A DNA stretch of 64,000 nucleotides from Acidobacteriota bacterium (lineage in GTDB: Bacteria; Acidobacteriota; CAIWXX01). The stretch lies in assembly GCA_040755995.1 (NCBI GenBank), contig JBFMAF010000010.1:160001-224000 (forward strand), given 5' to 3'. The notes below the pieces were generated by a model. It saw only the letters and a program-made list of their open reading frames with translations, was not told the origin of the DNA and made no database searches. Below, in pieces: positions 1-15,394 of this stretch (within the stretch, counting starts at the first letter, position 1; each line of letters opens with the position of its first letter). A program made the position numbers and the translations under genes.

Positions 1-803
1 GCCGGCAGCAGCTGGCGAGGGGTGCCAGACGCCCTCATGGCAACGGCCGTCGAGCGCCACGTGAGTGGAAGACAAACGAAGGCCGCCCAGGCCAGCGGCG
101 GGAGAGTTCCCGAGAGTAGGGCCGCCAAGAGGATGACATGGGCGACTGTCACGACGCAGGCGTACAGCCTGACCGTACTTGCCTGCCCTACCCTCACGCA
201 GATGTTCCGTTTGCCCACCAGGCGGTCCTGGAAGTAGTCGGGGATTTCGTTGAGTACCGCAATGCCGAACAGGAGGAGACCCGGTATCAGCGAGACCAGC
301 AACGGGAGCACGTCGATTCGTCTAGTCTGAACGTAGTAGCTCCCCAGTGTCATGAGAGGGCCGTAACAGCAGGCTATGGTGATCTCGCCGTATCCCCGGT
401 ACGCGAGCCTGAGCGGAGGTCCGAGGTAGAGGAACGCGCCGACGAATCCGGCAAGAGAGAACGCGATGATGGGCATTCCACACCTCAGGGCGAGCAGAGT
501 GGCAACCAGAAGCGCGCCCGAGAAGGCAATGACGCCAACCTGAAACGTGCGCACCGTCACAGGGACCGGTTCCAACTGGAACACCCTGTCTGTGCCAGCG
601 CGCCAGTCGAAGTACTCGTTGAAGGCCTCGACCCCGACCAGCACGAGCAGAATTCCGCCCAGACCCACAAGAAACAGGCCGGCATCGAATCGCCTCTCCG
701 CGTGGAAGGCGGCGGAGCTGCCCAGTGCGTAAGGCAACAGCCCGGCGAAGAGGAGGAACCGGTAGCGGAGGAGCCTCAGCAGCCCGGATAAAGCTCCACC
801 CAC
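1..803 (-). CDS. UbiA/MenA-family membrane prenyltransferase (3' end beyond window edge)
   Basis: Not in ORF track. Manual translation from GTG at 803: VGGALSGLLRLLRYRFLLFAGLLPYALG…VEAFNEYFDWRTGTD…YLGPPLRLAYRGYGE…VLNEIPDYFQDRLVGKRNI. It has both Asp-rich UbiA/MenA motifs and many TM segments, and overlaps the 3' end of the rSAM gene. Confidence 0.88.
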   Translation of the reverse strand, partial: MGGALSGLLRLLRYRFLLFAGLLPYALGSSAAFHAERRFDAGLFLVGLGGILLVLVGVEAFNEYFDWRAGTDRVFQLEPVPVTVRTFQVGVIAFSGALLVATLLALRCGMPIIAFSLAGFVGAFLYLGPPLRLAYRGYGEITIACCYGPLMTLGSYYVQTRRIDVLPLLVSLIPGLLLFGIAVLNEIPDYFQDRLVGKRNICVRVGQASTVRLYACVVTVAHVILLAALLSGTLPPLAWAAFVCLPLTWRSTAVAMRASGTPRQLLP

Positions 804-1771
804 TTGTTGGCCTCTCCCAGCAGCCTTGGATCTTCCACCACACGTTTGGCGAACGTCACGACCTCCGGCTCTCGCCACGCTCTCTTGTAACGCTGCCAGG
901 CCTCCGAGAGGGAGTGTCTTCTGAGGTCCGCGCAGACGAAGGGCAATGGACCGATGAGCTTGACCTTGCCATTCGGGATGACCAGCAGGCTCGCAGCGGG
1001 ACAGTCCAGCCGGTATCTGAGCTCCTCGACCACGTCATACGGGTAGTAGTAGATCTTCATCTTGCCGTCGTACTTCGTCTGCTTCTCCTTCAACACATCG
1101 AAGAACTTCTCGTACTCCGTCTCCGTTGGGCACAGCAGATCCCAGTTACGCGCGGCACGCCCTATGCGCATTATCTTGCCCGTGTAGAAACCGTATGTCC
1201 CCATTCTGTAAGCCATCTCGATGACATCACCCGTCTCATGGATGTTGAATTTGGAGGGAACGAAGACGATCTCTGTGGTCACACCAGCCGCCACGAGGTG
1301 GTCGCAGGCCTCAACGACCTTCTCCCAATCCCCATTCGGTCGCATCATTCGGAAGGTCTGCGGGGTTGAACCATCTACGCTCACCTGAACAGACCTGAAT
1401 CCCAGCGCTCCAATCCGGTTCGCCACCTGACGGTCGATCAGGAGGCCGTTGGTTTCCACCTTCAGGCTAGTCCCATGGGCTCGCAGGAACGAGCTGATCT
1501 CGAAGAAGCGCGGGTGGAGAAGCGGCTCCCCACCGGAGATGGCCACGTAAGGGATTCGCAGATCGACGATCTGCTTGAGAAAGAACGTAACCTCTTCGGG
1601 CGTGAGCTCGTCCGAGAACAGGTGGTCTCCCACTTCCTCGCAGCAGTGCAGGCAGGACAAGTTGCACGCGGAGTTCAACTGCCATGCTACGAACAGTGGG
1701 GCATCGAAGTCGCTGTAGCTGGTCCCTGCAATCGCCGCCGCGGGCGCAGCCTGGGTCGGATCGTGTGTCAT
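776..1771 (-). CDS. Radical SAM peptide maturase (MftC/PqqE-like) with Cys-poor twitch/SPASM-like C-terminus
   Basis: FDAPLFVAWQLNSACNLSCLHC (CxxxCxxC), SGGEPLL, VETNG, VQVSVDG motifs; C-terminal CPAASLLVIPNGKV. Confidence 0.9.
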   Translation of the reverse strand: MTHDPTQAAPAAAIAGTSYSDFDAPLFVAWQLNSACNLSCLHCCEEVGDHLFSDELTPEEVTFFLKQIVDLRIPYVAISGGEPLLHPRFFEISSFLRAHGTSLKVETNGLLIDRQVANRIGALGFRSVQVSVDGSTPQTFRMMRPNGDWEKVVEACDHLVAAGVTTEIVFVPSKFNIHETGDVIEMAYRMGTYGFYTGKIMRIGRAARNWDLLCPTETEYEKFFDVLKEKQTKYDGKMKIYYYPYDVVEELRYRLDCPAASLLVIPNGKVKLIGPLPFVCADLRRHSLSEAWQRYKRAWREPEVVTFAKRVVEDPRLLGEANKWVELYPGC

Positions 1772-2031
1772 TCCTGTGGCTCCTTCATCATGATGCCGTT
1801 GGTCTGCAGCTTCTGAACAAACTCCTGCACTTCTTCGCGAATTCCCACCGGTTCCTTCCGGTAGACCCGCGAGAGATCCGCAGCTACGGCGTCGACGCTT
1901 TTCCTTTCCTCGAGCAGTCGCAAGATGCGGGCGCCGGTCTCATTGGTCACGAACAACTTCTCGCTGAGCGTCTCGAACACAACAGCACCGAATTTCTCCT
2001 GGCGCACTCTCACGTGCTTTTCGAACTGCAT
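1768..2031 (-). CDS. PqqD/MftB-like RiPP recognition element (peptide chaperone), 87 aa
   Basis: RBS GAGGAGG before ATG 2031. VRVRQEKFGAVVF…LFVTNETGARILRLL…DLSRVY…EVQEFVQKLQTNGI fits the PqqD fold pattern; ATGA overlap with the rSAM gene. Confidence 0.87.
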   Translation of the reverse strand: MQFEKHVRVRQEKFGAVVFETLSEKLFVTNETGARILRLLEERKSVDAVAADLSRVYRKEPVGIREEVQEFVQKLQTNGIMMKEPQE

Positions 2032-2063
2032 GTCTCCTCCTCTTCGTATCGAGCCGTTTAGGC

Positions 2064-2128
2064 CAAGCCCGGGCTCCCGCTCGCATGTGAGAGGAAGGGG
2101 TTGATCACAGCCGGGGAGCCCGAGCTTG
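2064..2128 (-). other. Stem-loop between precursor gene and RRE gene
   Basis: caagcccgggctccc (2064-2078) pairs with gggagcccgagcttg (2114-2128), one mismatch; inner tgtga/tcaca pairing. Confidence 0.6.
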
Positions 2129-2141
2129 CACTCGGCGCGTA

Positions 2142-2288
2142 TCACGTGAACCTGATGTAGGGCTGGGCCATCACACGCCCGGACACGTCCTCAAGGGTCG
2201 GTTTCGTCCATTCCAACCCGTTGTCGCCTTCGGGCTCGGATCGCGTCTCTCTCGCCATCGCAACGCTCTCGCATGCTGCATTCTCCAA
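2142..2288 (-). CDS. Putative RiPP precursor peptide (48 aa from TTG 2288; 38 aa from ATG 2258)
   Basis: Strong RBS AAAGGAGGTG (2304-2295) 6 nt before the in-frame TTG. Sequence MENAACESVAMARETRSEPEGDNGLEWTKPTLEDVSGRVMAQPYIRFT has a WxxPxL RRE-binding-type motif and lies directly upstream of the RRE and rSAM genes. Confidence 0.8.
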   Translation of the reverse strand: MENAACESVAMARETRSEPEGDNGLEWTKPTLEDVSGRVMAQPYIRFT

Positions 2289-2317
2289 TTCGCTCACCTC
2301 CTTTCCGGCAATGGGAT

Positions 2318-2333
2318 GTGACCACCTGGTCAC
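2318..2333. promoter_or_regulatory. Palindromic operator GTGACCA-CC-TGGTCAC (candidate TetR site) upstream of precursor gene
   Basis: Perfect 7-bp inverted repeat; same TGACC-N4-GGTCA core as 3031-3044. Confidence 0.65.
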
Positions 2334-2350
2334 TTCGACGACAAAAAAAA

Positions 2351-2992
2351 TCACGCGGAAAGACCCTTCCTCAACACCTCCACGATGTCATCCACAAACT
2401 GCTCCAGTTCCGGCCTCTCCCTGTCCCAGATGCGGCCTGCCGAATCTAGAAAGGCAAGGGCATGTGCCTGCAGAAACCGGTCCATCACTGCATCCAACAG
2501 GAAGACTGCAGCCTTCATGTCGATGTCCTTGCGGATCTCGCCTCTCGCCCTCCCCTGCAGAAGTAAGGAGTGGAGGTACTCCGCCGAGAAGAGACGGATC
2601 TTCTGGAGCAGCTCTTCCCGAAACGGGGCTTCCCTCCCGTATACCATTCTGAGATAGATCCCGTAAATCAAGGGATGACGATCTATGAAGTCAACCCCTG
2701 CCAGAAGAGACTTCCGTATCCTCTCGAAGACCGGATCATCCTTGGTCTCGGCCTTGACCTGCTTGAGCGTCTTGCGCACGAGGTCGACCGCATGGTCGAA
2801 GGTATGGAGAAAGAGACTCCGCTTGTTGTTGAAATACTGGTAGATCGATCCCTTGGCTATCCCCAGGCGGGCTACGATCTCGTTGATGCTGGCGCGCTCA
2901 TAGCCCTTCTCGGAGAATTCCCGGATGGCGGTCTCCAGCACCCTGTTCCGCTTATCCTCGGGGAGATTGAAGAAGGTCTTCCTCGCTTCCAC
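2351..2992 (-). CDS. TetR/AcrR-family transcriptional regulator
   Basis: TFFNLPEDKRNRVLETAIREFSEKGYERASINEIVARLGIAKGSIYQYF HTH. Confidence 0.95.
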   Translation of the reverse strand: MEARKTFFNLPEDKRNRVLETAIREFSEKGYERASINEIVARLGIAKGSIYQYFNNKRSLFLHTFDHAVDLVRKTLKQVKAETKDDPVFERIRKSLLAGVDFIDRHPLIYGIYLRMVYGREAPFREELLQKIRLFSAEYLHSLLLQGRARGEIRKDIDMKAAVFLLDAVMDRFLQAHALAFLDSAGRIWDRERPELEQFVDDIVEVLRKGLSA

Positions 2993-3029
2993 GTGTCCTG
3001 CTCAGCGCATGCTCGAAGGGTCAGTCTTT

Positions 3030-3072
3030 GTGACCATGCGGTCATAATACAGCGCGATGAGACACACGTCAA
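3030..3072 (-). promoter_or_regulatory. Sigma70-type promoter for tetR (TTGACG-N17-TATTAT) overlapping a TGACC-ATGC-GGTCA operator
   Basis: -35 at 3072-3067, -10 at 3049-3044, palindrome at 3031-3044. Confidence 0.65.
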
Positions 3073-3671
3073 CCCGAACTCTCGCGTTTCCATGCCCCGA
3101 CGTGTTCGTTGTCCTCGGTGTTCCAAAGGTGCTGCGCCGCAACTACCTCATATGGGAAGAAGGCCAGGTACCCACGGTGGTTATCGAGGTGACTTCGGCA
3201 TCCTCGCGCGTGGAGGATCTCGGATCGAAGAAGGGCCTCTATGAACAGCTCGGCGTGCGCGAGTATTTCCTCTTCGACCCGCTCGGCGACTACCTCAAGC
3301 CGCAGCTACAGGGTTTCCGACTGACTCCGGATGGTTACATGCGTGTGCTTGGGACGGAGCTTGCTAGTGAAGTGCTGGGGCTGCGCTTGGTCACCGAGTC
3401 GGATGGGCTGAGGCTCTACGACATCCGGACCGGAGCGAAGCTGGAGAAGTACGAGGAGACGATGGAGCGCCTCAGGAGAGAGCGCGAGCGCGCGCAGCTG
3501 GAACAGGCGAGGGCCGACGAGGAGTCGCGGCGAGCCGAGGTGGAGAGAATGCGGGCTGACGAAGAGGCGCGGCGGGCTGAGGAGCAGAGGCTTCGGGCCG
3601 ATCATGCAGAAGCCGAGATCGTCAGGCTGCGAGCGGAGCTGGCCAGGTTGAGATCTGAACTGGGCCGCTGA
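3071..3671 (+). pseudogene. Uma2/DUF820-family endonuclease-like gene, 5'-truncated and probably frameshifted
   Basis: PDVFVV…WEEGQVPTVVIEVTS…DLGSKKGLYEQLGVREYFLFDP motifs plus a coiled-coil tail. The upstream NPNSRVS is in another frame and the usual N-terminus is absent. Confidence 0.6.
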
Positions 3672-3845
3672 GGCCCGCTCCCCACGCAGATCAAGGGAAC
3701 ATGCGCTAGCACGCTCTGTAATCAGCGACCTGGATGTGCGGAGGCGCGATCCAACGGGCAGGGTCCTCGGCGAGCCGAGCGACCAGCCACCTTGTCGTCA
3801 AATCGACAGATCCGCGGGGGTTCGCACCGGCGCATCAAGAGCCTA

Positions 3846-4808
3846 TCAGCGGATGTCGGCGAGGACATACTTGACAAACTCGCCCTCTCCTGCCTCAGCG
3901 AACCCCATGAAGGCCACCCTATTGCCACGCGCCGCCAGAGGCCAGAATCCATCGGCGGACATGCTCTTGCACTCTCCGCAATTCTCCCTCAACTTGCTCA
4001 AGATCTCGTCGATCAGGCCGTTCTTCCGGACGGAGCCCTCAGGCCCGTAGATGACCACGTCCCCATTCGGGCCCGGGTAGTGTCTCTCGGCGCAAAGGAA
4101 AGATCCGTCACTCATGAAGCCTAGTGATCGGCTGCCCTGCCCGTGAAACTGAAGCGTGGCTGCCCTGCGCACCCCGCCCGCGGGATCCAAATCCACAATC
4201 CGATCGCCGATTCTGTGGCGACCTCTAGGCGGAGGTAGCCCGGGAGAAAGCTCGGGCTCTAGCCAGTTCTCGATTCGACGGTACTCGATCCCTTCTTGAC
4301 CTCCGAGGAAATGCCCTTTACCCTCTGAGTCGACCCAGAAGTCCGTCACTTTGAACGCAGCGGTTTCCGTCCTGCTGATCAAGGTCCCGTCCTTTCTTCG
4401 GGCCTTGTAAACGACATTGTGGTCATCGAAGCAGGCCACAAGGTACCTGTTTCCATCTGCGCCGAAGGCCGGAAATAGGTCAAATGTGCCGTAGTCCTCT
4501 ATCCCCTTAATGCAGTCCGGGGCCGATCCTGTGGTCAGGTCCAGCAACTTCAGTCCGTGCGCAGAAGAACGGGCCGCGGACTCGAGTGCTATGCTTCGAA
4601 CGCTGTTCCCGGGACCTAAAACTCTGGCCACCGGGAAGCGTCCACTTATGGCCAACTCTGTTGGGGAAAGGAAGACGGCGTCCATAACCCCCCGCAAGAT
4701 CTCCCGCTCGTCGGCCACGCTGATGATGGTGACCTGCTGCGCCTGACTCGTCTGCGAGACAACACATGCAAGTGAAGCAATGAACACGCAGATAACGTAC
4801 TCCCTCAT
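3846..4808 (-). CDS. Hypothetical secreted protein
   Basis: RBS GGAGG before ATG 4808; signal-peptide-like MREYVICVFIASLACVVSQTSQA; no recognisable domain. Confidence 0.6.
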   Translation of the reverse strand: MREYVICVFIASLACVVSQTSQAQQVTIISVADEREILRGVMDAVFLSPTELAISGRFPVARVLGPGNSVRSIALESAARSSAHGLKLLDLTTGSAPDCIKGIEDYGTFDLFPAFGADGNRYLVACFDDHNVVYKARRKDGTLISRTETAAFKVTDFWVDSEGKGHFLGGQEGIEYRRIENWLEPELSPGLPPPRGRHRIGDRIVDLDPAGGVRRAATLQFHGQGSRSLGFMSDGSFLCAERHYPGPNGDVVIYGPEGSVRKNGLIDEILSKLRENCGECKSMSADGFWPLAARGNRVAFMGFAEAGEGEFVKYVLADIR

Positions 4809-4915
4809 CGAGGACTCCTCCCTGCCTACCTTGCTATACTGGGATACAATTCGCTTCATGATCCACGACCAGGCTGCAGAAACAAGTCATCTCGATCCAA
4901 ACCCATTCATAGCTG

Positions 4916-5167
4916 TCATTCGGCATCTTTCGGCGCACCCTCTTGATACATCGCCAATGAACATCGGGGGGGCCGGCAGAAACTCATTATGAGAGGACTG
5001 TGGCACGAGGTCGAGCAACAGTCATCACAGTTCCAGGATGTGTCACAACACCTCACTTGATAATACCTCAAGCCCTCTCCGCAGGGCGGCGGTTGATCCC
5101 CGGATAGGGAAGGCAGCGCCATGCCGACTAGCAAAACTGCAGCCGTAATAAGCGATTTCACAGTCAC
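4916..5167 (-). CDS. Small Cys-rich exported peptide/protein (83 aa)
   Basis: RBS AAGGAG before GTG 5167; hydrophobic signal-like segment followed by 9 Cys (C..CC..C..CC..C..C..C). Confidence 0.45.
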   Translation of the reverse strand: MTVKSLITAAVLLVGMALPSLSGDQPPPCGEGLRYYQVRCCDTSWNCDDCCSTSCHSPLIMSFCRPPRCSLAMYQEGAPKDAE

Positions 5168-5427
5168 GTGTAGTCTTCTCCTTGCGATACAGTCTGGCCA
5201 GAGATACTCGACAAGTGGGGGGGCGTCAAGGGTGCACCCGTTCGTCATGCCGTTACGCCATTACGTTGCACCCTGTACGCGTCGTTGCCCTCGCGCGCCC
5301 CCCTCTGCGTGCCTATGTGCCTACCAATCTGTCCCTGTGCCTGCTGCCTCTCTTCGTCCCTGCGTCCCCGGGGAACCGGGCTGAGTTGCGAGGCGTTGAG
5401 CTCGCCCTGAAGCTGGGGCAGCCTCGC

Positions 5428-6900
5428 TCAGAGCGCGGCGAGGCGGTAGAGCGAATCCAGCGTGAGGGTGACACGTTCGTACAGCCAGGTCGGGTAGATC
5501 CCGAACCAGATGATGAAGAACGTGCCGGCGGCGAGTACGAGCGTCAGAGAAAAGAACGCAGGGGCCGGCTTGATCTCGGCGGTCTCCGGCTTCATGTAGG
5601 CGAAGATCACCGGCCGTATGTAGTAGTAGAGCGACAGGGCCGAGTTCAGAACCGCGAAGACGACCAGATATGTATGCCCTGCCTGGAGCGCCGCCTTGAA
5701 TACGAAGAACTTCCCAAAAAAGCCGGCCGTCGGCGGAATCCCCGCGAGCGACAGCAGGCTCAGGGCCAGCACCGCGCCTATCACAGGGTTCTTGAAGCCC
5801 AACCCGCCGTACCGGTCTATGTCCACCAGCTCCTCGTCCTCCCGCACCAGCGCGATCACTGCCCCAAAGGCGGCGAAGTTCATCGCGGCGTACGCGACCA
5901 GATAAAACATCATCGCGGCCACACCGCCGGGGCTTCCCGCCACGAACGCCATGAGGACGTAGCCTACGTGCGCGATCGAAGAGTATGCGAGCATTCGCTT
6001 GATGTTGTTCTGCCGCAACGCGGCAAAGTTGCCTATCAGCATCGTGCACGCCGAGATGACGACAGCCATGTGGCGCCACTCGACCTCCAGCGACGGGAAC
6101 GCCGTGAGGAGTACGCGGGCCAGGGCGGCGAAGCCCGCCATCTTGGGCCCGACCGCCATGAACGCCGTGACCGGCGTCGGCGCTCCCTGGTAGACGTCGG
6201 GGGTCCACATGTGGAACGGGAAAGCCGAGATCTTGAACAGGAACCCCACAAGGAGCAGCGCAAGGCCGGGGCCTATGTACTGCGGGTGGTGCATCGTACC
6301 CCTGGCGATGCTGTCCGCCACCGCGGGGAGGAAGGTCGTGCCGGTCGCCCCGTATACCATAGCGATGCCAAACAGGAAGAACGACGTCGAGAACGCGCCC
6401 AGCAGGAAATACTTGACGGCGGCTTCGACCGAGTACACATTCTCGCGCTGGAAGCCCGCCATCGCGTAGAGGCCGACCGACAGGATTTCGATCCCGATGA
6501 AAATCACGAGCAGCTCCTTGCTCGTGACGATGCTCATCATGCCGACCACGGAGAACAGCAAGAGGGCAAAGAACTCCCCGTGCAATATCTTCTGTGCCGT
6601 GAGAAACGAAATCGACAACAACACGGCGGCGGCGGCCACGAGCAGGAACACGAACCGGAAGAAGAACCCGTATGAGTCCAACGTGAGCATGCTGTCGTAC
6701 GCCGTGCCCACGGTGCCGGTCAAGCGTAACAGGGCGTACAGCGCAACCAGGATGCCGGCCAGGGAGATGTACGGCGCGTAGCGCCGCGAGAACGCGGGGG
6801 CCATGGCCGCCAGCAGCATCACGGCGACGCCGGTCAGCAGAAGCGTCATCTCCGGACCGAGCGCCGCGAGGCTCACCAGCGGGGGCGAGATTGCGTTCAT
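5428..6900 (-). CDS. nuoN: NADH-quinone oxidoreductase subunit N
   Basis: EAAVKYFLLGAFS, FKISAFPFHMWTPDVYQGAPTP, IKRMLAYSSIAH; start MNAISPP at 6900. Confidence 0.95.
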   Translation of the reverse strand: MNAISPPLVSLAALGPEMTLLLTGVAVMLLAAMAPAFSRRYAPYISLAGILVALYALLRLTGTVGTAYDSMLTLDSYGFFFRFVFLLVAAAAVLLSISFLTAQKILHGEFFALLLFSVVGMMSIVTSKELLVIFIGIEILSVGLYAMAGFQRENVYSVEAAVKYFLLGAFSTSFFLFGIAMVYGATGTTFLPAVADSIARGTMHHPQYIGPGLALLLVGFLFKISAFPFHMWTPDVYQGAPTPVTAFMAVGPKMAGFAALARVLLTAFPSLEVEWRHMAVVISACTMLIGNFAALRQNNIKRMLAYSSIAHVGYVLMAFVAGSPGGVAAMMFYLVAYAAMNFAAFGAVIALVREDEELVDIDRYGGLGFKNPVIGAVLALSLLSLAGIPPTAGFFGKFFVFKAALQAGHTYLVVFAVLNSALSLYYYIRPVIFAYMKPETAEIKPAPAFFSLTLVLAAGTFFIIWFGIYPTWLYERVTLTLDSLYRLAAL

Positions 6901-8459
6901 TCTCGATCTCCGACGGCTGCCGTGGTGTGCGGGCCTGTCTCGATGCCGCGCTGTTCGACCTGGACGGGCCTGGACACGGTCGCGCCGTAAAGCAACTGCC
7001 TGGTCGATGCGTGCATGCACCTGGTGAACATCGGTGAGTAGATGCCCATGAGGAAAATGCAGATGATCAGTGGCACGAGTGTGAGCGTCTCGCGGGGGTT
7101 CAGGTCGGGGTGTTTCGAATGCTTTTCCGGTGCTACTCCATAGAGCATGCGCTGGAGGGCCCAGAGCATGTAGACGGCGCTCAGGATGACCCCGGTCGAC
7201 GCGATCACCGCAAACACCGCGCGGCTCTTGAAGGTTCCCATCAGAATCAGGAACTCGCCGACGAACCCATTGGTACCCGGGAGTCCGATGGAGGAGAGCG
7301 CGACGATCAGGAAGAAGGCGGAGTACACGGGCATGACCTTCCAGAGTCCGCCAAGGGCCGCGATCTCGCGCGTGTGCGCGCGCTCGTAGATCACGCCGAC
7401 GATTATGAACAGCGCTCCGGTGGAGACGCCGTGGTTCAGCATCTGATAGATGGCCCCCTCGACCGCCTCCTGATTGAGAGCGAAGATGCCCAGAACGACG
7501 AAGCCGAGGTGTGCGACGGAGCTGTACGCAACCAGCTTCTTGATGTCCTTTTGAATCATGGCCATGAGCGATCCATAGATGATCCCGACAAGCGCCATGA
7601 TCATGATGAAACCTGCGTACTCGTGCGTCGCGTGCGGGAAGAGCGGAAGATTGAAGCGCAGCATGCCGTAGGTGCCCATCTTCAGCAGGATCCCTGCCAG
7701 CAGCACGCTGCCTGCGGTGGGAGCCTCGACGTGCGCATCGGGAAGCCACGTGTGGAACGGGAAGAGCGGCACTTTGATTGCAAACGCGAGGAAGAAGGCC
7801 CAGAAGAGCCAGATCTGCTCGGTCGAGCTAATGTCCAGCGCGTAGAGCCGCAGGATGGAGAACGTCCCATGCCCCTCTTGGGCGGCATACAACTGGTACA
7901 AGTAGATGATGCCCACGAGCATGAGCACGCTGCCGACGAGCGTGTAGATGAAGAACTTGATCGACGCGTAAATCCGTCTCGGCCCGCCCCAGATCCCGAT
8001 CAAGAAGTACATCGGGATCAGCATGCCCTCCCAGAACAGGTAGAACAGAAGCAGGTCCAGGGACACGAAGACGCCGATCATGCCCGTCTCGAGCAGCAGC
8101 ATCATGAAGAAATATTCCCTGACCCGTTCGGTGATCGCAGAGAAAGACGCGAGCACTGAGAGGACCATGAGGAAGGTCGTCAGCAGCACCAGGAACAGCG
8201 AGATGCCGTCGATTCCGAGATCGTAGCTCGTGTTCAGCTGCGGGATCCAGGTGCGGGACTCGCAGAACTGGAAGCCCGGGCGCGTCGGATCGAACCCGAA
8301 GTACAGTTTGAGCGACAGCAGGAAGTCCAGCAAGGTGACGGCGAATGCAAACAGGCGGATCTGTCGAAGGCTCTGGCGTGGGATCAGGATCAGAAGAAAG
8401 GCGCCGAGCAGGGGTACGAACGTGACGGCGGAGAGGAGCGATCCTTGCAGCATGCCCAT
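6897..8459 (-). CDS. nuoM: NADH-quinone oxidoreductase subunit M
   Basis: AIKVPLFPFHTWLPDAHVEAPTAGS, KKLVAYSSVAHLG. Confidence 0.96.
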   Translation of the reverse strand: MGMLQGSLLSAVTFVPLLGAFLLILIPRQSLRQIRLFAFAVTLLDFLLSLKLYFGFDPTRPGFQFCESRTWIPQLNTSYDLGIDGISLFLVLLTTFLMVLSVLASFSAITERVREYFFMMLLLETGMIGVFVSLDLLLFYLFWEGMLIPMYFLIGIWGGPRRIYASIKFFIYTLVGSVLMLVGIIYLYQLYAAQEGHGTFSILRLYALDISSTEQIWLFWAFFLAFAIKVPLFPFHTWLPDAHVEAPTAGSVLLAGILLKMGTYGMLRFNLPLFPHATHEYAGFIMIMALVGIIYGSLMAMIQKDIKKLVAYSSVAHLGFVVLGIFALNQEAVEGAIYQMLNHGVSTGALFIIVGVIYERAHTREIAALGGLWKVMPVYSAFFLIVALSSIGLPGTNGFVGEFLILMGTFKSRAVFAVIASTGVILSAVYMLWALQRMLYGVAPEKHSKHPDLNPRETLTLVPLIICIFLMGIYSPMFTRCMHASTRQLLYGATVSRPVQVEQRGIETGPHTTAAVGDRE

Positions 8460-10345
8460 CAGAACACCCAGATCGACAGCAGCAACACGGCGCCAACGAG
8501 CATTGCGGCGGCGTATGCCTTGAGGTTGCCGGTCTGTATCCTGGCGAGAACCCGGCCGGTCTCCATCGCGCCTGCGGCAATGGAGTCGAGCGTGTGATCG
8601 ATGACGCCCAGGTCGAAGGCCGTGTAGACGCGATCGGAGCCGTTCTTGAGCGGGTCGACGATCGCGGCGTCATACCCCTCGTCCACGAAGTACTTGTTGA
8701 GCAGCACCTTGTAGAGCCGCCGGAATCTCTCGGCAAGGCGCTTCGGCGTATCCGGCTCCTTGATGTAATAGTGGTACGCGAGAAGCCAGCCGATAGCCAT
8801 CACCGCCACAGCCGCGGCGGCCAGCACCTTCGGCAAGGCCCCGTGCACCGCGGCGTGCTCGACCTCGCGATGAGCCCAGATCGAACCGCTGATGAAATGC
8901 GGCAGCGAACTGTACACCCAACCCGCCGCGATACTTCCCAGCGCCAGCAGCATCAGCGGCGTCGTCATGCTCCGCGGCGACTCGTGCGGATGCACAGCAG
9001 GATCGACGCGGCTGACTCCGAAGAAAGTCATGTTCAGCAGCCTGAACATGTAGAAAGACGTCATGGCCGCCGTGCTAATCCCTATCGCCCAGAGCCAGAC
9101 GTTCGTCTCGAACGCCTTCTCGAGTATCAAGTCCTTGCTGTAGAAGCCCGAAAGCCAGGGAAAGCCGGTGATCGCCAGCGTTGCCACTGCGAAGGTCCAC
9201 GTGGTGATCTTGAGCTTCTTGCCCAGACCTCCCATCCTGCGTATGTCCTGCTCGCCGGACATCGCGTGAATCACGCTGCCGGCGCCCAGGAAAAGCAGCG
9301 CCTTGAAGAATGCATGGGTGTACAGATGGAATATCGCCGCGTCGAACGCAGCGACGCCGCAGGCAAGGAACATGTAGCCCAGCTGGCTCACCGTGGAATA
9401 GGCGAGCACGCGCTTGATATCGTTCTGGACCAGCCCGATCGACGCGGCGAAGAAGGCCGTCATCGCACCCACCCAGGCCACCACGAGCAGCACCCAGGTA
9501 GTCCTCGCGTACAGGTCACCCATTCGCGCGATCATGTAGACGCCCGAGGTCACCATCGTCGCGGCATGGATCAGGGCCGAGACGGGCGTCGGGCCTTCCA
9601 TCGCGTCGGGCAGCCAGACGTAAAGCGGAATCTGCGCGGACTTGCCGGTGGCACCTATGAACAGGCACAGTGCGATGAGGTTCAGCAGCAGGCTCCCTTG
9701 CGGCACCTCCTGCACCTGCGCCAGGATGGGCTGTATGTTCAATGTGCCGAAGTTCGCATAGAGCAGCATCATGCCGGCCAGGAAGCCTGCGTCTCCCACC
9801 CGGTTGACTACGAACGCTTTCTTGCCCGCGTCCGATGCCGACTTACGCTCGTACCAGAACCCGATCAGGAGGTACGAACACAGCCCGACGCCCTCCCAGC
9901 CGATGAACAGGACCACGAGGTTCGAACCAAGCACGAGCATCAGCATGGCGAACGTGAAGAGGTTCAAGTACGTGAAGTACCGGGAGTAGTCCCGGTCGTG
10001 ATGCATGTACCCGACCGAGTACACGTGGATCAAGAAGCCCACGCCGGTGACGACCAGGCACATGATCAGGGAGAGCGAATCGAGGCGGAAGGCGAGGTCG
10101 ATCTGCATGCCGCCTGAGTCGATGAATCTGAACAGCGGCGGTCCATCCAGCGGAAGCGCGTGGAACCCGGGCAGCTGCACACCCAGCGTCATCAGCAGGT
10201 ACCCGACCGTGATCAGGAACGAGCCGAACACCGAGAGACACGCCAGCAGCGAGATCGCGGGCCGCGGCATCCTGAGGCCGAGCAGCGCGAGGATCAGTGC
10301 CGAGGCCGCGGGAAATAGCGGGATCAGCGCAACGTATTCGCTCAT
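8459..10345 (-). CDS. nuoL: NADH-quinone oxidoreductase subunit L
   Basis: GKSAQIPLYVWLPDAMEGPTPVSALIHAATMV, HAFFKALLFL. Confidence 0.96.
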   Translation of the reverse strand: MSEYVALIPLFPAASALILALLGLRMPRPAISLLACLSVFGSFLITVGYLLMTLGVQLPGFHALPLDGPPLFRFIDSGGMQIDLAFRLDSLSLIMCLVVTGVGFLIHVYSVGYMHHDRDYSRYFTYLNLFTFAMLMLVLGSNLVVLFIGWEGVGLCSYLLIGFWYERKSASDAGKKAFVVNRVGDAGFLAGMMLLYANFGTLNIQPILAQVQEVPQGSLLLNLIALCLFIGATGKSAQIPLYVWLPDAMEGPTPVSALIHAATMVTSGVYMIARMGDLYARTTWVLLVVAWVGAMTAFFAASIGLVQNDIKRVLAYSTVSQLGYMFLACGVAAFDAAIFHLYTHAFFKALLFLGAGSVIHAMSGEQDIRRMGGLGKKLKITTWTFAVATLAITGFPWLSGFYSKDLILEKAFETNVWLWAIGISTAAMTSFYMFRLLNMTFFGVSRVDPAVHPHESPRSMTTPLMLLALGSIAAGWVYSSLPHFISGSIWAHREVEHAAVHGALPKVLAAAAVAVMAIGWLLAYHYYIKEPDTPKRLAERFRRLYKVLLNKYFVDEGYDAAIVDPLKNGSDRVYTAFDLGVIDHTLDSIAAGAMETGRVLARIQTGNLKAYAAAMLVGAVLLLSIWVF

Positions 10346-10367
10346 GAGTATCTCAATTGACCGGCCA

Positions 10368-10670
10368 CTAGCCTTTCATCAGGTCCACCCGCTCGCTGTC
10401 CAGGTTCTCCTTGTGGTGGAAAAGGGCGATCATGATGGCGAGCCCAACGGCGGCTTCGGCCGCCGCCACGGTGATGACGAAGAACACGATGATCTGTCCC
10501 GCCACGTCGCCGAGCGATCGCGAGAATGCGATGAGGGCCAGGTTTGCGCCGTTGAGCTGCAGCTCGACGCACATGAAGAGCGTGATGAGATCCCGCCTGA
10601 AGAACACTCCGACGACACCGATCGTGAACAGAACGGCGCTCAGAATCAGGTACCAGTTCAGCGGGATCAT
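10368..10670 (-). CDS. nuoK: NADH-quinone oxidoreductase subunit K
   Basis: 100 aa; CVELQLN, VAAAEAAVGLAI. Confidence 0.95.
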   Translation of the reverse strand: MIPLNWYLILSAVLFTIGVVGVFFRRDLITLFMCVELQLNGANLALIAFSRSLGDVAGQIIVFFVITVAAAEAAVGLAIMIALFHHKENLDSERVDLMKG

Positions 10671-11158
10671 AGCTTCTTCTTCGCGAGCATCACCGCGCCC
10701 ACGATCGCGGCCAGTATCAGCACGGAGCTCAGCTCGAACGGGTAGATGTAGTGTGTGAAGAGCTGCGTCCCGATCTCCTCCACCGTCGTCTCCGGCGCCC
10801 GCGAAGCGGCCACCTGTCCCGCCGGGCTCCTTAGCGCCACTACCAGCTCGATGAATAGCATCAGTCCGAAAGCCACTGCGAACGGCAGGACTCGGGGCCT
10901 CTTCTGCGGTTGCTCTCGGGCCGTGAGGTTCAGCAGCATGATGACGAACAGGAAGAGGACCATGATCGCCCCGGCGTATACGATGACCTGGATCGCCGCT
11001 ATGAACGGCGATCCCAGGAGAACGTAGAGTCCCGCAAGAGCGAAGAAGGCCAGCACCAGGCAGAGGCAGCTGTTCACCGCGTTGCGCTGGAATAGCATGG
11101 CCACGGCCGAGGCGACGGCGATGGCGGCCAACAGAAAGAAGGCGGCTATCGCGATCAC
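10667..11158 (-). CDS. nuoJ: NADH-quinone oxidoreductase subunit J
   Basis: QVIVYAGAIMVLFLFVIMLLN, PFELSSVLIL; GTG start overlaps nuoH stop. Confidence 0.93.
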   Translation of the reverse strand: MIAIAAFFLLAAIAVASAVAMLFQRNAVNSCLCLVLAFFALAGLYVLLGSPFIAAIQVIVYAGAIMVLFLFVIMLLNLTAREQPQKRPRVLPFAVAFGLMLFIELVVALRSPAGQVAASRAPETTVEEIGTQLFTHYIYPFELSSVLILAAIVGAVMLAKKKL

Positions 11159-12213
11159 GCGGCCCTCAGCGAGATCCAGACGGCGGTGGCGAGGATATTG
11201 GCCATGGAGAGCGGGAACAAGAACTTCCATCCAAAGGCCATGAGCTGGTCATATCGAAGACGAGGCAGAGTAGCACGGAGCCACACGTACACGAAGAGCA
11301 GAAAGAGCACCTTCACAACGAACCATCCGAGGCCCACGATCCAGCCGTAGGATGTGCCTGGCGATGCACCCCAGCCGTTCCAGCCGCCGAGGAACAGCGT
11401 CGTGGCCAGGCATGATACACCGATCATATTGATGTATTCGCTCATGAAGAACATCGCGAACTTCATGGAGCTGTACTCGGTGTGGAAGCCGGCCACCAGC
11501 TCCTGCTCGGCCTCGGGGAAATCGAAAGGAGCGCGATTGGTTTCCGCCACGCCGCAGATGAAGTAGAGCAGGAATGCCAGAAACCCCATCGGAGCCTGAA
11601 AGATGAACCACCGCGGGACGAATCCCGCAAAATACCCGGACTGGGCGCTGACGATCGAGTTGAGGCTGAGCGACCCAGCCAGCATCAACACCGCCACAGT
11701 CGATAGGCCGAGGCTGAGCTCGTAACTCGCCATCTGCGCCGTAGACCGCAGCGCTCCGAGCAGCGCGTACTTGCTGTTGCTGCTCCACCCCGCCAGCACA
11801 ATGCCGTACACACCCATGGCCGTAGCCGAGAAGACGATCAGCAGGCCGATGTTCAAGTCGGTGAGCTGCAACGAAAGCGGGGTCTTCACCAAACCGAAGA
11901 GGGTGGTGTCGGGCCCGAACGGGATGACCGAGAACCCAAGGAATGCCGTCGTGATTCCAATGAGCGGCGCGATATAGTAGATGACCTTGTCGGCCTGCGG
12001 CGGCACGAAGTCCTCTTTGAACATCAGCTTGATGGCATCGGCAAAGGGCTGCAGTATTCCGTGCGGCCCCACGTACATCGGCCCGAGCCTGCTCTGGAAG
12101 TGCGCCACCGCCTTGCGCTCGAACCACACCATGAACGGAACACCAGTCATGACCACTGCGAAGACTGCCACGCACTTGACCGCGATGAGGAGAAACTCAA
12201 GAAAGCCCGTCAC
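11155..12213 (-). CDS. nuoH: NADH-quinone oxidoreductase subunit H
   Basis: ERK…RLGP…GILQPFADAIKL, AETNRAPFDFPEAEQELVAGF. Confidence 0.96.
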   Translation of the reverse strand: MTGFLEFLLIAVKCVAVFAVVMTGVPFMVWFERKAVAHFQSRLGPMYVGPHGILQPFADAIKLMFKEDFVPPQADKVIYYIAPLIGITTAFLGFSVIPFGPDTTLFGLVKTPLSLQLTDLNIGLLIVFSATAMGVYGIVLAGWSSNSKYALLGALRSTAQMASYELSLGLSTVAVLMLAGSLSLNSIVSAQSGYFAGFVPRWFIFQAPMGFLAFLLYFICGVAETNRAPFDFPEAEQELVAGFHTEYSSMKFAMFFMSEYINMIGVSCLATTLFLGGWNGWGASPGTSYGWIVGLGWFVVKVLFLLFVYVWLRATLPRLRYDQLMAFGWKFLFPLSMANILATAVWISLRAA

Positions 12214-12713
12214 GCCTTCGCCTCGCCTTGACTCTCAGCCTGCGCCCTCAATTCCTCGATCAGCCGATCGAGCTTCTCGATGTCCAGTCCCTCGTTGTAC
12301 GCTTCCTGATTGACCTGGATGACAGGTGCGGTCCCGCAGGAACCGAGGCATTCTACGGTGGAGAGGGTGAAATGTCCATCAGGCGTCGTCTCGCCTGGCT
12401 TGATACCCAGCCTGTTCTTGAGATGCTCCAGAAGCCGCTCGCCTCCCAGCAGCATACAGCTCACATTCGTGCACAACTGAAGGTGAAAGCGCCCGGCGGG
12501 CTTGAGCCTGAACATCGTGTAAAACGTGATGACCGCGTAAACCTCCACCGGCTCTACGCCCAGCAGGGCCGCGATCCACCGAATCGCCTCCTTGGTGATG
12601 TGCCCCTCCTGCTTCTGCACCAGATACAGCGTCGGGAGAAGCGCCGCGCGCTTCTGCGGATAGCGGCCGAGAATTCTGTCGAATTCCCTCTGGTTCTCAG
12701 CAGTGAATTGCAT
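12210..12713 (-). CDS. nuoE: NADH-quinone oxidoreductase subunit E (2Fe-2S)
   Basis: RYPQKRAALLP, TFYTMF, CTNVSC, VECLGSC. Confidence 0.93.
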   Translation of the reverse strand: MQFTAENQREFDRILGRYPQKRAALLPTLYLVQKQEGHITKEAIRWIAALLGVEPVEVYAVITFYTMFRLKPAGRFHLQLCTNVSCMLLGGERLLEHLKNRLGIKPGETTPDGHFTLSTVECLGSCGTAPVIQVNQEAYNEGLDIEKLDRLIEELRAQAESQGEAKA

Positions 12714-12746
12714 CTAGTAGTGCAGGGGTCCTTTCTCCCGAAAAAA

Positions 12747-13928
12747 TCAGCGGTCGATTTCACCCAGAACGATATCGAGGCTGCCGATGACGGCGACGAG
12801 GTCGGCCAGCATCGCCCCCTCGGCCATCTTCGACAGAGCCTGGAGGTTCACGAAGCTCGGGGGCCGGATGCGGCATCGGAACGGCTTCGCCGTTCCGTCG
12901 GATACGAGGTAGAACCCGATCTCTCCCTTGGGCGCCTCGACGGGCACGTACGCCTCGCCGGCAGGCGGCCTGACCCCGTTGCAGACGATGAGGAAGTGGT
13001 GGATCAGCGCCTCCATGCTGGTGTGCAGTGTGTTCCTGGGCGGCAGGACGACCTTCGGAGCGTCGGCGATGTATGCGCCGGAAGGGAGCTTCGCGAGCGT
13101 CTGCTCGACGATTCGCACGCTCTGCCGGATTTCGGCGATGCGCACCCGATACCGATCGTACACGTCGCCGTTGGCGCCTACCGGCACTTCGAAGTCGTAC
13201 TGCTCGTACCCGCTATACGGATTGGTCTTTCGGATATCCCACCCGACACCGCTCGCGCGCAGCGCCGGCCCGGAGAGGCCCAGGTTCATCGCGTCGGCCG
13301 CGGAGATCCGGCCGACGCCCACGGTGCGATTCAACCAGATCTTGTTGCGGGTCAGCAGGGTCTCGTACTCGTCCACTCTGGGCTTGAAATAGTCTATGAA
13401 GTCCTTCACGCGTTTGGTGAAGTCTGCTGGTATGTCGGCGGCAAGTCCTCCGATTCTGAAGTACGACACCGTCAGGCGCGCGCCGCAGACCTGTTCGAAG
13501 AGGTCCATGATCACCTCGCGCTCGCGGAAGCAGTACAGCAGCATGGACATCGCGCCGATGTCGATCGCGTGTGTGCCGAGCCAGACCAGGTGGGACGCGA
13601 TGCGCTGGAGCTCGGTCAACATCACGCGGACTGTTTGCGCCCGCGGCGGCACGTCGACACCAACCAGCTTTTCGGTCGACAGCATGAAGGCCAGGTTGTT
13701 GCTCATGGGCGCCAGGTAGTCGAGCCTGTCGGTCATGGTCATGGCCTGGATGTAGGTCTTGTTCTCCGCGGTCTTCTCTATGCCCGTATGGAGGTATCCG
13801 ATGTGCGGTGTCGCTCTCACGATCCGCTCGCCGTCAAGCTCCAGCACGATCCTCAACACGCCGTGGGTGGACGGGTGCTGCGGGCCCATGTTGACGGTCA
13901 TGGTTTCGGTGCGAATCAGGTCAGGCAT
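12747..13928 (-). CDS. nuoD: NADH-quinone oxidoreductase subunit D
   Basis: NMGPQHPSTHGVLR, GYLHTGIEK, DIVLGEIDR; lacks NiFe CxxC motifs. Confidence 0.97.
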   Translation of the reverse strand: MPDLIRTETMTVNMGPQHPSTHGVLRIVLELDGERIVRATPHIGYLHTGIEKTAENKTYIQAMTMTDRLDYLAPMSNNLAFMLSTEKLVGVDVPPRAQTVRVMLTELQRIASHLVWLGTHAIDIGAMSMLLYCFREREVIMDLFEQVCGARLTVSYFRIGGLAADIPADFTKRVKDFIDYFKPRVDEYETLLTRNKIWLNRTVGVGRISAADAMNLGLSGPALRASGVGWDIRKTNPYSGYEQYDFEVPVGANGDVYDRYRVRIAEIRQSVRIVEQTLAKLPSGAYIADAPKVVLPPRNTLHTSMEALIHHFLIVCNGVRPPAGEAYVPVEAPKGEIGFYLVSDGTAKPFRCRIRPPSFVNLQALSKMAEGAMLADLVAVIGSLDIVLGEIDR

Positions 13929-13935
13929 GGGCGCA

Positions 13936-14460
13936 TCAGAAAGGCGGGCCGCCTTCTTCCTTCGGCGTTTGATGGACGTCTTCGAAGAACCCCCGTTCAG
14001 GTTGGTACCCGAGCGGGAAGTCCTTCCGCAGCGGGTGCCCCTCGAAGCCGTCGTACATGAGTATCCTGCGCAAGTCCGGATGGCCGTCCGCCTTGAGGCC
14101 GAACATGTCGAACACCTCGCGCTCGTGCCAGTTGGCGGTCGCGAAGACGCCGGTTGCGGTCGGGTACGACTCGCCGTCCGCCAGCCTCAGGACCAGCAGC
14201 ACGCGCTCGCCGGACTGCACGCACGTGAGGTTGTATACGATCTCGAAGCGCGGCTCTCGCGGGTGGAAGTCGATCGCGAAGAGGTCCGACAGGAATTCGA
14301 ATCCGCACTCACGGGCTGCGCCAAGGAGCTCCACCAGCTTTTCCTTCCTCACTGCATACGCTTCGAAGGCCTTTCCTGCGACGGGCTGCAGTTCGGCGGC
14401 GAGCTCCGCTCCAACGCGTGCTGCGAGCCGGTCTCGGAAGGAGGTGGTCTTCTCGCTCAT
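13936..14460 (-). CDS. nuoC: NADH-quinone oxidoreductase subunit C
   Basis: [13 protein letters not shown]…[10 protein letters not shown]…[10 protein letters not shown]; start MSEKTT at 14460. Confidence 0.95.
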
Positions 14461-14954
14461 GCGACGAGTTTGCCCTTCGACTTGAGGATCTTCTCCTGGA
14501 GTCTGAATATGCCGTCCAGCAGCTGTTCCGGGCGCGGGGGGCAGCCCGGCACGTACACATCCACCGGAACGACGCGGTCGACGCCCTGGACTATGGCGTA
14601 GTTGTTGAATATTCCCCCGCACGAGGCGCACGCGCCCATCGAGATCACCCATTTCGGCTCGGACATCTGGTCATAGATCTGTCGCAGCACCGGAGCCATC
14701 TTCTGCGAGACGCGCCCCGCGACGATCATGAGATCCGCCTGGCGGGGCGAGGCCCGGAACACCTCCGAGCCGAAGCGTGCGATATCGAACCGGCCTGCGC
14801 CAGTGGCCATCATTTCGATCGCGCAGCAGGCCAATCCGAAAGTGACGGGCCATATCGAGCTCTTTCGGGCCCAGTTGATCACCTTGTCGGCTGATGTAAG
14901 CAGAACCTGGTCCTTGACCTCCTCAGCCAACTTATTCAAATCTCGTTCTTTCAT
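14457..14954 (-). CDS. nuoB: NADH-quinone oxidoreductase subunit B
   Basis: [34 protein letters not shown]. Confidence 0.97.
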
Positions 14955-15022
14955 TTCAACACTCTCCCGGGCGCAGCCCGGGACCGACTTTGTACTTCAT
15001 ATTTCAGACTTCACGCTTCTCG

Positions 15023-15394
15023 TCAGTCCCAGTTGAGTGCACCCTTCTTCCACACATAGAGGAAGCCGGTGAACACGATTCCCAGGTAGATAGCCATCTC
15101 CACGAAGACGAACAGGCCCAATGATGGCAGCCTGGCCATATCGGAGTAGATGACCGCCCAGGGATAGATGAAGACGGCCTCCATGTCGAAGAGTATGAAA
15201 AGCATTGTGATCAGGTAGAACTTCACCGAGAAGCGCAGCCGGGCGTCCCCCACCGGTTCCATGCCGCACTCGTATGGCATGTCCTTGCGGGAGGATCGCA
15301 CGCGCGGGCCGAAGAAGTTCGAAATCAGGATCGTGACCGTCCCGAAACCCAGCGCGATCGCGAACAGGACAACGAATGGTACCCAGGGACTCAT
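15023..15394 (-). CDS. nuoA: NADH-quinone oxidoreductase subunit A
   Basis: PYECG, FILFDMEAVFIYPWA, WKKGALNWD. Confidence 0.96.
   Translation of the reverse strand: MSPWVPFVVLFAIALGFGTVTILISNFFGPRVRSSRKDMPYECGMEPVGDARLRFSVKFYLITMLFILFDMEAVFIYPWAVIYSDMARLPSLGLFVFVEMAIYLGIVFTGFLYVWKKGALNWD

Follow-up and report, generated by a model that had tools for sequence, protein, structure and literature searches.

What does the gene cluster at the left edge of a 64,000-nucleotide stretch of an Acidobacteriota genome (contig JBFMAF010000010.1, positions 160,001 to 224,000; hereafter the window) make? Pfam matches and inspection of the open reading frames show five genes on the minus strand, encoding a TetR-family repressor, a short precursor peptide, a stand-alone recognition element (RRE) of the kind that serves peptides made by the ribosome and modified after translation (RiPPs), a radical S-adenosylmethionine (SAM) enzyme and a UbiA prenyltransferase. 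A first, sequence-only reading had suggested a membrane-anchored redox product or lipopeptide. The redox product is the most likely outcome and can be narrowed to a respiratory electron carrier: the last four genes probably form a cassette for a membrane electron carrier that is ribosomally derived and polyprenylated and would do the job menaquinone does elsewhere, a reading to which the neighbouring genes and the missing quinone pathways of the hosts both point. A wider version, to which we give slightly less than an even chance, is that this new type of peptide-derived carrier, made by a radical SAM enzyme free of auxiliary clusters together with UbiA and encoded in a portable 2.3-kb cassette that passes between lineages, replaces menaquinone in scattered bacteria and archaea and serves proteobacteria as a low-potential carrier for fumarate respiration. 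Below, G000 denotes the genome of the window, C a contig, L a fetched cassette locus and other G numbers other genomes.

The four core genes span 2.3 kb. The peptide gene (2142..2288, minus strand) most likely starts at a TTG at 2288, 7 nucleotides (nt) after AGGAGGT, which bears out the strong ribosome-binding site proposed earlier. It encodes 48 residues, with a variable N-terminus, a WxxPxL leader (2210-2193) and the core MAQPYIRFT followed by the stop (2171-2142), its C-terminal end reading WTKPTLEDVSGRVMAQPYIRFT. It is followed by genes for a PqqD-fold RRE of 87 residues (1768..2031, minus; PF05402, 50.4 bits against 23.4), a radical SAM maturase of 331 residues (776..1771, minus) and a MenA/UBIAD1-like UbiA prenyltransferase of 289 residues (1..803, minus; PF01040 above cut-off), whose stop lies 67 bases past the window edge (G000:C10:159934). 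The co-orientation of the five genes and the overlap of the last three, both described in the sequence-only reading, hold: RRE and radical SAM genes share 4 nt (ATGA), radical SAM and UbiA genes 28 nt. TetR_N, PqqD, Radical_SAM and UbiA were matched above their Pfam cut-offs among the window proteins; in an NCBIfam scan no cassette protein reached a cut-off.

Relatives of the radical SAM protein number 1,381 at E ≤ 1e-40, the best 120 listed being 60–77% identical to it (self apart), and an alignment of 34 was used to fetch 73 genome and 80 metagenome loci (153 in all, some of them duplicates). The RRE and the MAQPYIRFT peptide are present in 110/110 loci in which the radical SAM gene is preceded by more than 700 bases. 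Overall the core was found in 124 of the 153; in the other 29, the radical SAM gene always lies less than 600 bases from a contig end. UbiA is encoded in 135 of the 138 loci with more than 300 bases downstream of the radical SAM gene, often overlapping it, and two of the three loci without it belong to genomes that carry a complete second copy of the cassette. The conserved peptide beside homologous radical SAM and RRE genes, and the synteny of UbiA across genomes, that the sequence-only reading had proposed as checks are thus both found. Leaders vary apart from W-x-x-P-x-L-x-D-V-S, and the same core recurs in archaea and proteobacteria alike, with L098 exceptional in that its reading frame continues past the core with no stop. 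Synonymous codons differ at all eight degenerate core positions while the amino acids are invariant, and selection therefore acts on the peptide itself. Peptide, RRE, radical SAM enzyme and UbiA form a real, widespread conserved unit.

The titles of the host genomes name Planctomycetota, Omnitrophota, Elusimicrobia, Lentisphaerae, Nitrospirota, Nitrospinota, Thermodesulfobacteriota, Aminicenantia, WOR-3, Beta- and Gammaproteobacteria, Hadarchaeota and Bathyarchaeota, among others. Hosts are labelled metagenome-assembled or uncultured, with one unlabelled exception, and the taxon labels may be wrong; no cultured host appears among the 73 genome-locus titles or the named matches. The cassette is sparse (1/401 genomes in the phylum of G000, 6/151 in the order around G055), which fits its lateral spread. 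On plasmids only distant radical SAM proteins were matched, ten being listed at 24–29% identity. Some genomes have two cassette copies (L066 and L216 in G084; L033 and L034 in G239; L012 and L036), the second being rearranged or partial in G084 and G239. In the Hadarchaeota locus L020 the peptide gene (L020:2498-2599) is inverted and lies between UbiA and a polyprenyl synthase gene, and a geranylgeranyl-reductase-like gene, scoring just under its cut-off, lies beside them.

The sequence-only reading held the system to be neither the pyrroloquinoline quinone (PQQ) nor the mycofactocin pathway, and this stands, all curated cut-offs being missed and the auxiliary-cluster cysteines lacking. The RRE falls under every NCBIfam cut-off, with MftB nearest (30.4 against 33) and PqqD at 32.3 against 46. 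Calling the radical SAM enzyme MftC-like is apt in that MftC is its best NCBIfam match, and misleading in that the score is 123.8 bits against a cut-off of 265 (PqqE, 73.9 against 381) and the SPASM cluster cysteines are absent. The CxxxCxxC cysteines C36, C40 and C43 are intact here and invariant in 160 sequences. In the C-terminal domain C280 is the sole conserved cysteine (95%), replaced in some paralogues, and no SPASM Pfam match was obtained; with a single cysteine that is not strictly invariant, the enzyme cannot bind the auxiliary clusters by which SPASM and Twitch maturases are defined. MftC is described as using such clusters (PMC10114670). A structural model of the enzyme (predicted local distance difference test score, pLDDT, 88.7) best matches the solved folds of SkfB (template modelling score, TM, 0.68) and PqqE, with SuiB also matched. 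Two radical SAM copies occur in seven loci and three in another seven; the peptide core is unchanged in these multi-paralogue cassettes, which suggests several radical steps.

No named sister family was found above cut-off among 20 radical SAM representatives, and the ESM Atlas returned automatic names only. Many members of the wider clade (P0254, P0266, P0271-P0299) have a cysteine-poor C-terminal domain, and none of those scanned exceeds any NCBIfam cut-off. A divergent archaeal cassette, L211:7354-10972 (G623:C17), encodes a peptide ending MAQPYKTSTLLI, an RRE, a member of the same radical SAM family and an MFS-like transporter, together with a second radical SAM gene, which is of the SPASM type and divided between two frames; no cassette-type UbiA was found in it, and it is possibly a repurposed, exported RiPP. 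Its leader spacing equals that of the cassette. On this single locus MAQPY appears to be the deepest-conserved part of the core, which points to the tyrosine and the residues before it. A divergent family member at 1e-45 was found in 1/401 genomes of the archaeal phylum around the Bathyarchaeota genome G237.

The prenyltransferase retains both of its aspartate-rich motifs: N56-x3-D60-x5-D66 and N179-x3-D183-x3-D187 (numbered on the 283-residue query) are 98–100% conserved in 108 UbiA sequences. It scores 78.9 against the MenA model TIGR00751 (cut-off 102.15) and falls far below every PRK06080 model, and its nearest solved relative is UBIAD1. Identity is 38–65% among cassettes and about 30% to the orphan MenA proteins of the same genomes. 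Judged by its sequence, the enzyme is a member of the MenA/UBIAD1 branch but a family of its own.

The genes around the cassette suggest where its product may act. In 37 of the 75 loci of at least 9 kb, a quinone-linked complex (Nqr-like, Nuo, Frd, ETF-QO, NrfD or NapC) is encoded nearby; a polyprenyl synthase is encoded in 24, and one or the other in 44. Among the 153 loci the partners are Nqr-like (27, after exclusion of six AsrB/hydrogenase-gamma-type proteins from the NqrF cluster), NapC-like (8), Nuo (4), Sdh/Frd (4), NrfD (4) and ETF-QO (3). In a quick tree of UbiA (55 rows, from genome loci with a near-complete gene), these six types are scattered over separate clades. The cassette is inserted between nqrE and nqrF in L043, L051, L149, L150, L151 and L153, directly follows nuoM-nuoN in L107, and is preceded by frdCAB and a TRAP transporter in the betaproteobacterial loci L070 and L074. 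The recurring synthase has the long-chain heptaprenyl synthase HepT as its best match. In L047 it directly follows the radical SAM gene, and the cassette UbiA was not found in that 1.2 Mb assembly.

The quinone pathways of the hosts are the other part of the evidence. G000 is 99.84% complete and encodes two nuo operons, cytochrome bd and NrfD- and NapC-like proteins; MqnA/D, MqnE, MqnC, MenB, MenD and a 4-hydroxybenzoate UbiA were not found in it. MqnA/D is present in 34/40 relatives that lack the cassette (33/39 when the unpublished genome G025 is left out). Pathway searches of cassette genomes took in 50 of the 73 genome loci: MenB was above cut-off in 0/52 genomes, and MqnA/D was matched, once each, in 4/51, G047 being the only one of the four also to have MqnE/C-like genes. 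The genomes of L070 and L074 have a ubiquinone-type UbiA and no MenB, MenD or MqnA/D, so placed that their cassettes may occupy the slot for a low-potential carrier in fumarate respiration. MenG/UbiE was considered as a partner, being present in the first five genomes, and rejected: it occurs in 24/52 cassette genomes and in 97/151 genomes of the order around G055 (1/6 with the cassette against 96/145 without), and its neighbours are unrelated. That same order sample has MqnA/D in 23/151 (MenB was not searched there), a hint of widespread quinone salvage or of a further route to the head group.

From the observed gene set, core invariance, family assignments, neighbours and pathways not found in G000 we infer the following chemistry. 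The RRE would grip the WxxPxL leader, as RREs are established to do, and the radical SAM enzyme would modify the MAQPY(IRFT) core. Most likely it would take a hydrogen from an sp3 carbon in Met, Gln or Pro and link that carbon to the Tyr ring, much as Glu and Tyr are joined by PqqE. Next, a small aromatic head group could be freed by unlinked housekeeping proteases or by radical fragmentation, and C-prenylated by the MenA-like enzyme with a long chain supplied by the polyprenyl synthase. The product would shuttle electrons from Nqr-like or Nuo dehydrogenases to Frd, NrfD, NapC or cytochrome bd. The head group could equally well be a low-potential N- or S-heterocycle or a true quinone. An invariant core with differing synonymous codons is the kind of evidence from which mycofactocin was predicted (PMC3023750).

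Several points weigh against a carrier of this kind. For a redox-active ring the route would be short: a single radical SAM enzyme and a single prenyltransferase, with neither a protease nor an oxidase linked to them. G047 carries both the cassette and a probable futalosine cluster, and in G000 MenG and an orphan MenA above cut-off are retained, so that menaquinone from a scavenged precursor is possible. The 98% complete genome G002, from the family of G000, encodes complex I and cytochrome bd and has neither cassette nor Men/Mqn pathway genes (it also keeps MenA-like and MenG genes); a missing quinone pathway thus does not require the cassette. Mutual exclusion of cassette and MqnA/D within the order around G055 was not significant (1/6 against 22/145, p = 1), most genomes of that sample being without MqnA/D anyway, and completeness is known for few cassette genomes. 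Of the 75 long loci, 38 have no quinone-linked neighbour. The excess over random 21-kb windows of G000 (2.4% with a quinone-linked complex, 0.5% with a polyprenyl synthase) is overstated, as the queries were drawn from the same loci, the background is one genome and the loci are related or duplicated; the variety of partners weighs more than the enrichment ratio. The acceptor of the Nqr-like complexes is itself a deduction, because most subunits have Nqr proteins as best matches and miss the curated cut-offs, only NqrF exceeding its own.

Other products can be envisaged. The peptide could be a prenylated lipopeptide that carries no electrons and acts in signalling, as a ComX-like signal for a neighbouring kinase, or as an accessory of respiratory complex assembly. 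Such a role would suit the recurrence of a membrane histidine kinase (in 25 loci, the window flank counted) and of a response regulator (in 28), the want of a linked protease to excise a small head group, and the transporter-bearing, divergent archaeal copy, in which the core reads MAQPYKTSTLLI and no UbiA of the cassette type was found. ComX/ComQ-type systems likewise prenylate a ribosomal peptide, with soluble non-UbiA prenyltransferases and strain-variable peptides, unlike the UbiA-fold enzyme of the cassette, which would act once a radical SAM enzyme has modified an invariant core. Pheromones diversify, and a core unchanged from archaea to proteobacteria does not look like one; moreover, no conserved exporter or immunity gene was found among cassette neighbours, most loci, the immediate flank in the window among them, do not have the kinase pair, and a long-chain synthase and insertion within nqr operons suit a carrier better. 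We regard a lipopeptide as unlikely. A distinctly improbable alternative is a redox cofactor, enzyme-bound or soluble, that bears a short prenyl group and works with a dedicated family of dehydrogenases, in the way of PQQ and mycofactocin. The logic and the nearest relatives of the cassette are those of these two pathways, and Hdr/Mvh and molybdopterin enzymes lie near some cassettes; against it, no single dehydrogenase family recurs, six unrelated quinone-type complexes are found instead, and the linked synthase is closest to the long-chain HepT.

Mycofactocin shares with the cassette a short precursor with an invariant C-terminus, a stand-alone RRE, a radical SAM maturase, a TetR regulator and the lack of an exporter, and its redox product was predicted from the same type of evidence (PMC3023750). 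Its precursor is described as ending in Cys-Gly-Val-Tyr (PMC3023750), whereas the present one ends in IRFT and has no NCBIfam match. The MftB, MftC and MftR cut-offs are all missed here, and auxiliary clusters are absent. A peptidase, an oxidase and a glycosyltransferase complete the mycofactocin pathway, a prenyltransferase taking their place here, and its neighbours are nicotinoproteins rather than membrane complexes. MftD, MftE and MftF were not among the recurring or immediate neighbours; whole genomes were not searched for them. With PQQ the cassette has in common the PqqD-fold RRE, a PqqE-like fold, the core Tyr, and a Met-x3-Tyr spacing equal to the Glu-x3-Tyr of PqqA. It differs in that the PQQ precursor core holds a Glu-Tyr pair, as described in PMC10114670, and MAQPYIRFT has no Glu. 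The PqqD and PqqE cut-offs are missed, PqqB, PqqC and PqqF are not among the recurring neighbours, and the hosts look mostly anaerobic from the genes they carry, with a product predicted to be lipidated.

The cassette might instead be a third route to a known quinone, demethylmenaquinone or menaquinone, with no new molecule involved. Menaquinone pathways also have a MenA-branch prenyltransferase, a long-chain polyprenyl synthase and the same partner complexes; cassette genomes have hardly any Men or futalosine genes, and organisms with menaquinone and no known pathway are reported (PMC13386864). In these pathways, however, the head group derives from chorismate, as opposed to the ribosomal peptide predicted here, and a naphthalene ring would be hard to reach from the core with one radical enzyme. 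MenG is uncorrelated with the cassette (24/52; 1/6 against 96/145) and the TIGR00751 cut-off is missed, which leaves a known quinone quite improbable. Finally, UbiA could be a salvage MenA merely co-transcribed with an unrelated RiPP, given that orphan MenA genes occur in cassette genomes and that in L047 a synthase gene follows that of the radical SAM enzyme, with the cassette UbiA not found. Retention in 135/138 loci, often overlapping the radical SAM gene, and identities of 38–65% within the family against about 30% to orphan MenAs make this very improbable indeed. A respiratory carrier is still the preferred reading. Unusual prenylated carriers outside the Men, Mqn and Ubi routes have precedents in caldariellaquinone, which originates from tyrosine, and methanophenazine, although only 1/401 genomes of the archaeal phylum around G237 has a divergent family member and no link to methanogens was seen. 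Caldariellaquinone biosynthesis is listed as uncharacterised (PMC13386864).

The cassette ends at UbiA, and the recurring fifth gene elsewhere is that for a polyprenyl diphosphate synthase. The sequence-only reading expected further pathway genes beyond the left edge of the window. None was found there: the next two genes, for a 1268-residue membrane protein and then an 844-residue protein (L001:9547-15530), have no counterpart in the other loci and no NCBIfam match at 1e-15; a resemblance to DUF2339 is presumed for this flank. Nor did the suggested adjacent proteases or methyltransferases materialise, none being conserved among the 118 proteins scanned (112 of 141 selected neighbours or fragments and six cluster representatives). 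The orphan MenA of G000 (L158:1420-3029, on G000:C47), a genome in which no pathway to 1,4-dihydroxy-2-naphthoate was found, is followed by a gene for what we take to be a CPBP/CAAX-type membrane protease; as a candidate pathway member this gene was rejected, having no match in the 153 loci. Nqr was likewise rejected as an obligatory partner, PF03116, which also covers RnfD, being present in 28/52 cassette genomes and not in G000. In the NqrA–F-like operons of L012, L015, L018, L151 and others, the A subunit contains 4Fe-4S domains, and its score lies between those for NqrA and RnfC.

On the other side of the window cassette, a complex I (nuo) operon (5428..15394, minus) lies about 2.4 kb upstream of tetR on the same strand, outside the cassette, and is a candidate user of the product. 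Between the two (3057-5248) are three genes: one encodes a protein with a Uma2 domain and a coiled tail, one a 337-residue protein with no family match and one a Cys-rich protein of 110 residues.

The tetR gene (2351..2992, minus; PF00440, 59 bits), counted as a member of the system in the sequence-only reading, is a local accessory outside the core: it is present in 2/154 loci (window counted), the only orthologue, in L005, being 71% identical, and it scores 44.5 bits against the MftR model (cut-off 224.9). It is preceded by a putative sigma-70-type promoter, TTGACG-N17-TATTAT (3044..3072, minus; 10/12 matches), which abuts the first operator and is weak evidence alone, 0.6 such promoters being expected by chance in shuffles. 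The twin operators noted earlier, palindromes of TGACC-N4-GGTCA, are present directly downstream of the -10 box (3031..3044) and ahead of the peptide gene (2319..2332). With 16 copies genome-wide the pattern by itself is not rare, and across the 153 loci only one further match was found, inside a gene of L070; these putative operators are supported by footprinting, because L005, the sole other locus with this TetR, keeps both at the same positions. A stem-loop between the peptide and RRE genes (2064..2128, minus; 15-nt arms, 93%; z = -3.86, with 0/200 shuffles as stable) probably stabilises or attenuates the transcript, such that the peptide would be made in excess.

The full-text literature searched, which excludes subscription journals and supplements, holds no description of the cassette or of its exact core, and the accessible main text of PMC7470986 and PMC9062424 does not mention UbiA. 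The system is apparently an undescribed class of RRE-dependent RiPP. For the common respiratory quinones the known routes start from small metabolites, and neither PQQ nor mycofactocin, the two redox cofactors known to derive from peptides, is lipid-anchored. A survey from 2026, covering 26,264 genomes, reports many lineages without a quinone pathway and suggests that further carriers exist (PMC13386864). The four-gene cassette offers a concrete, expressible candidate that makes the question of undiscovered carriers testable. If the proposed function is right, it would represent a way of making a respiratory carrier for which no description was found, and would add to RiPP pathways a UbiA enzyme and a peptide-modifying radical SAM family without SPASM clusters.

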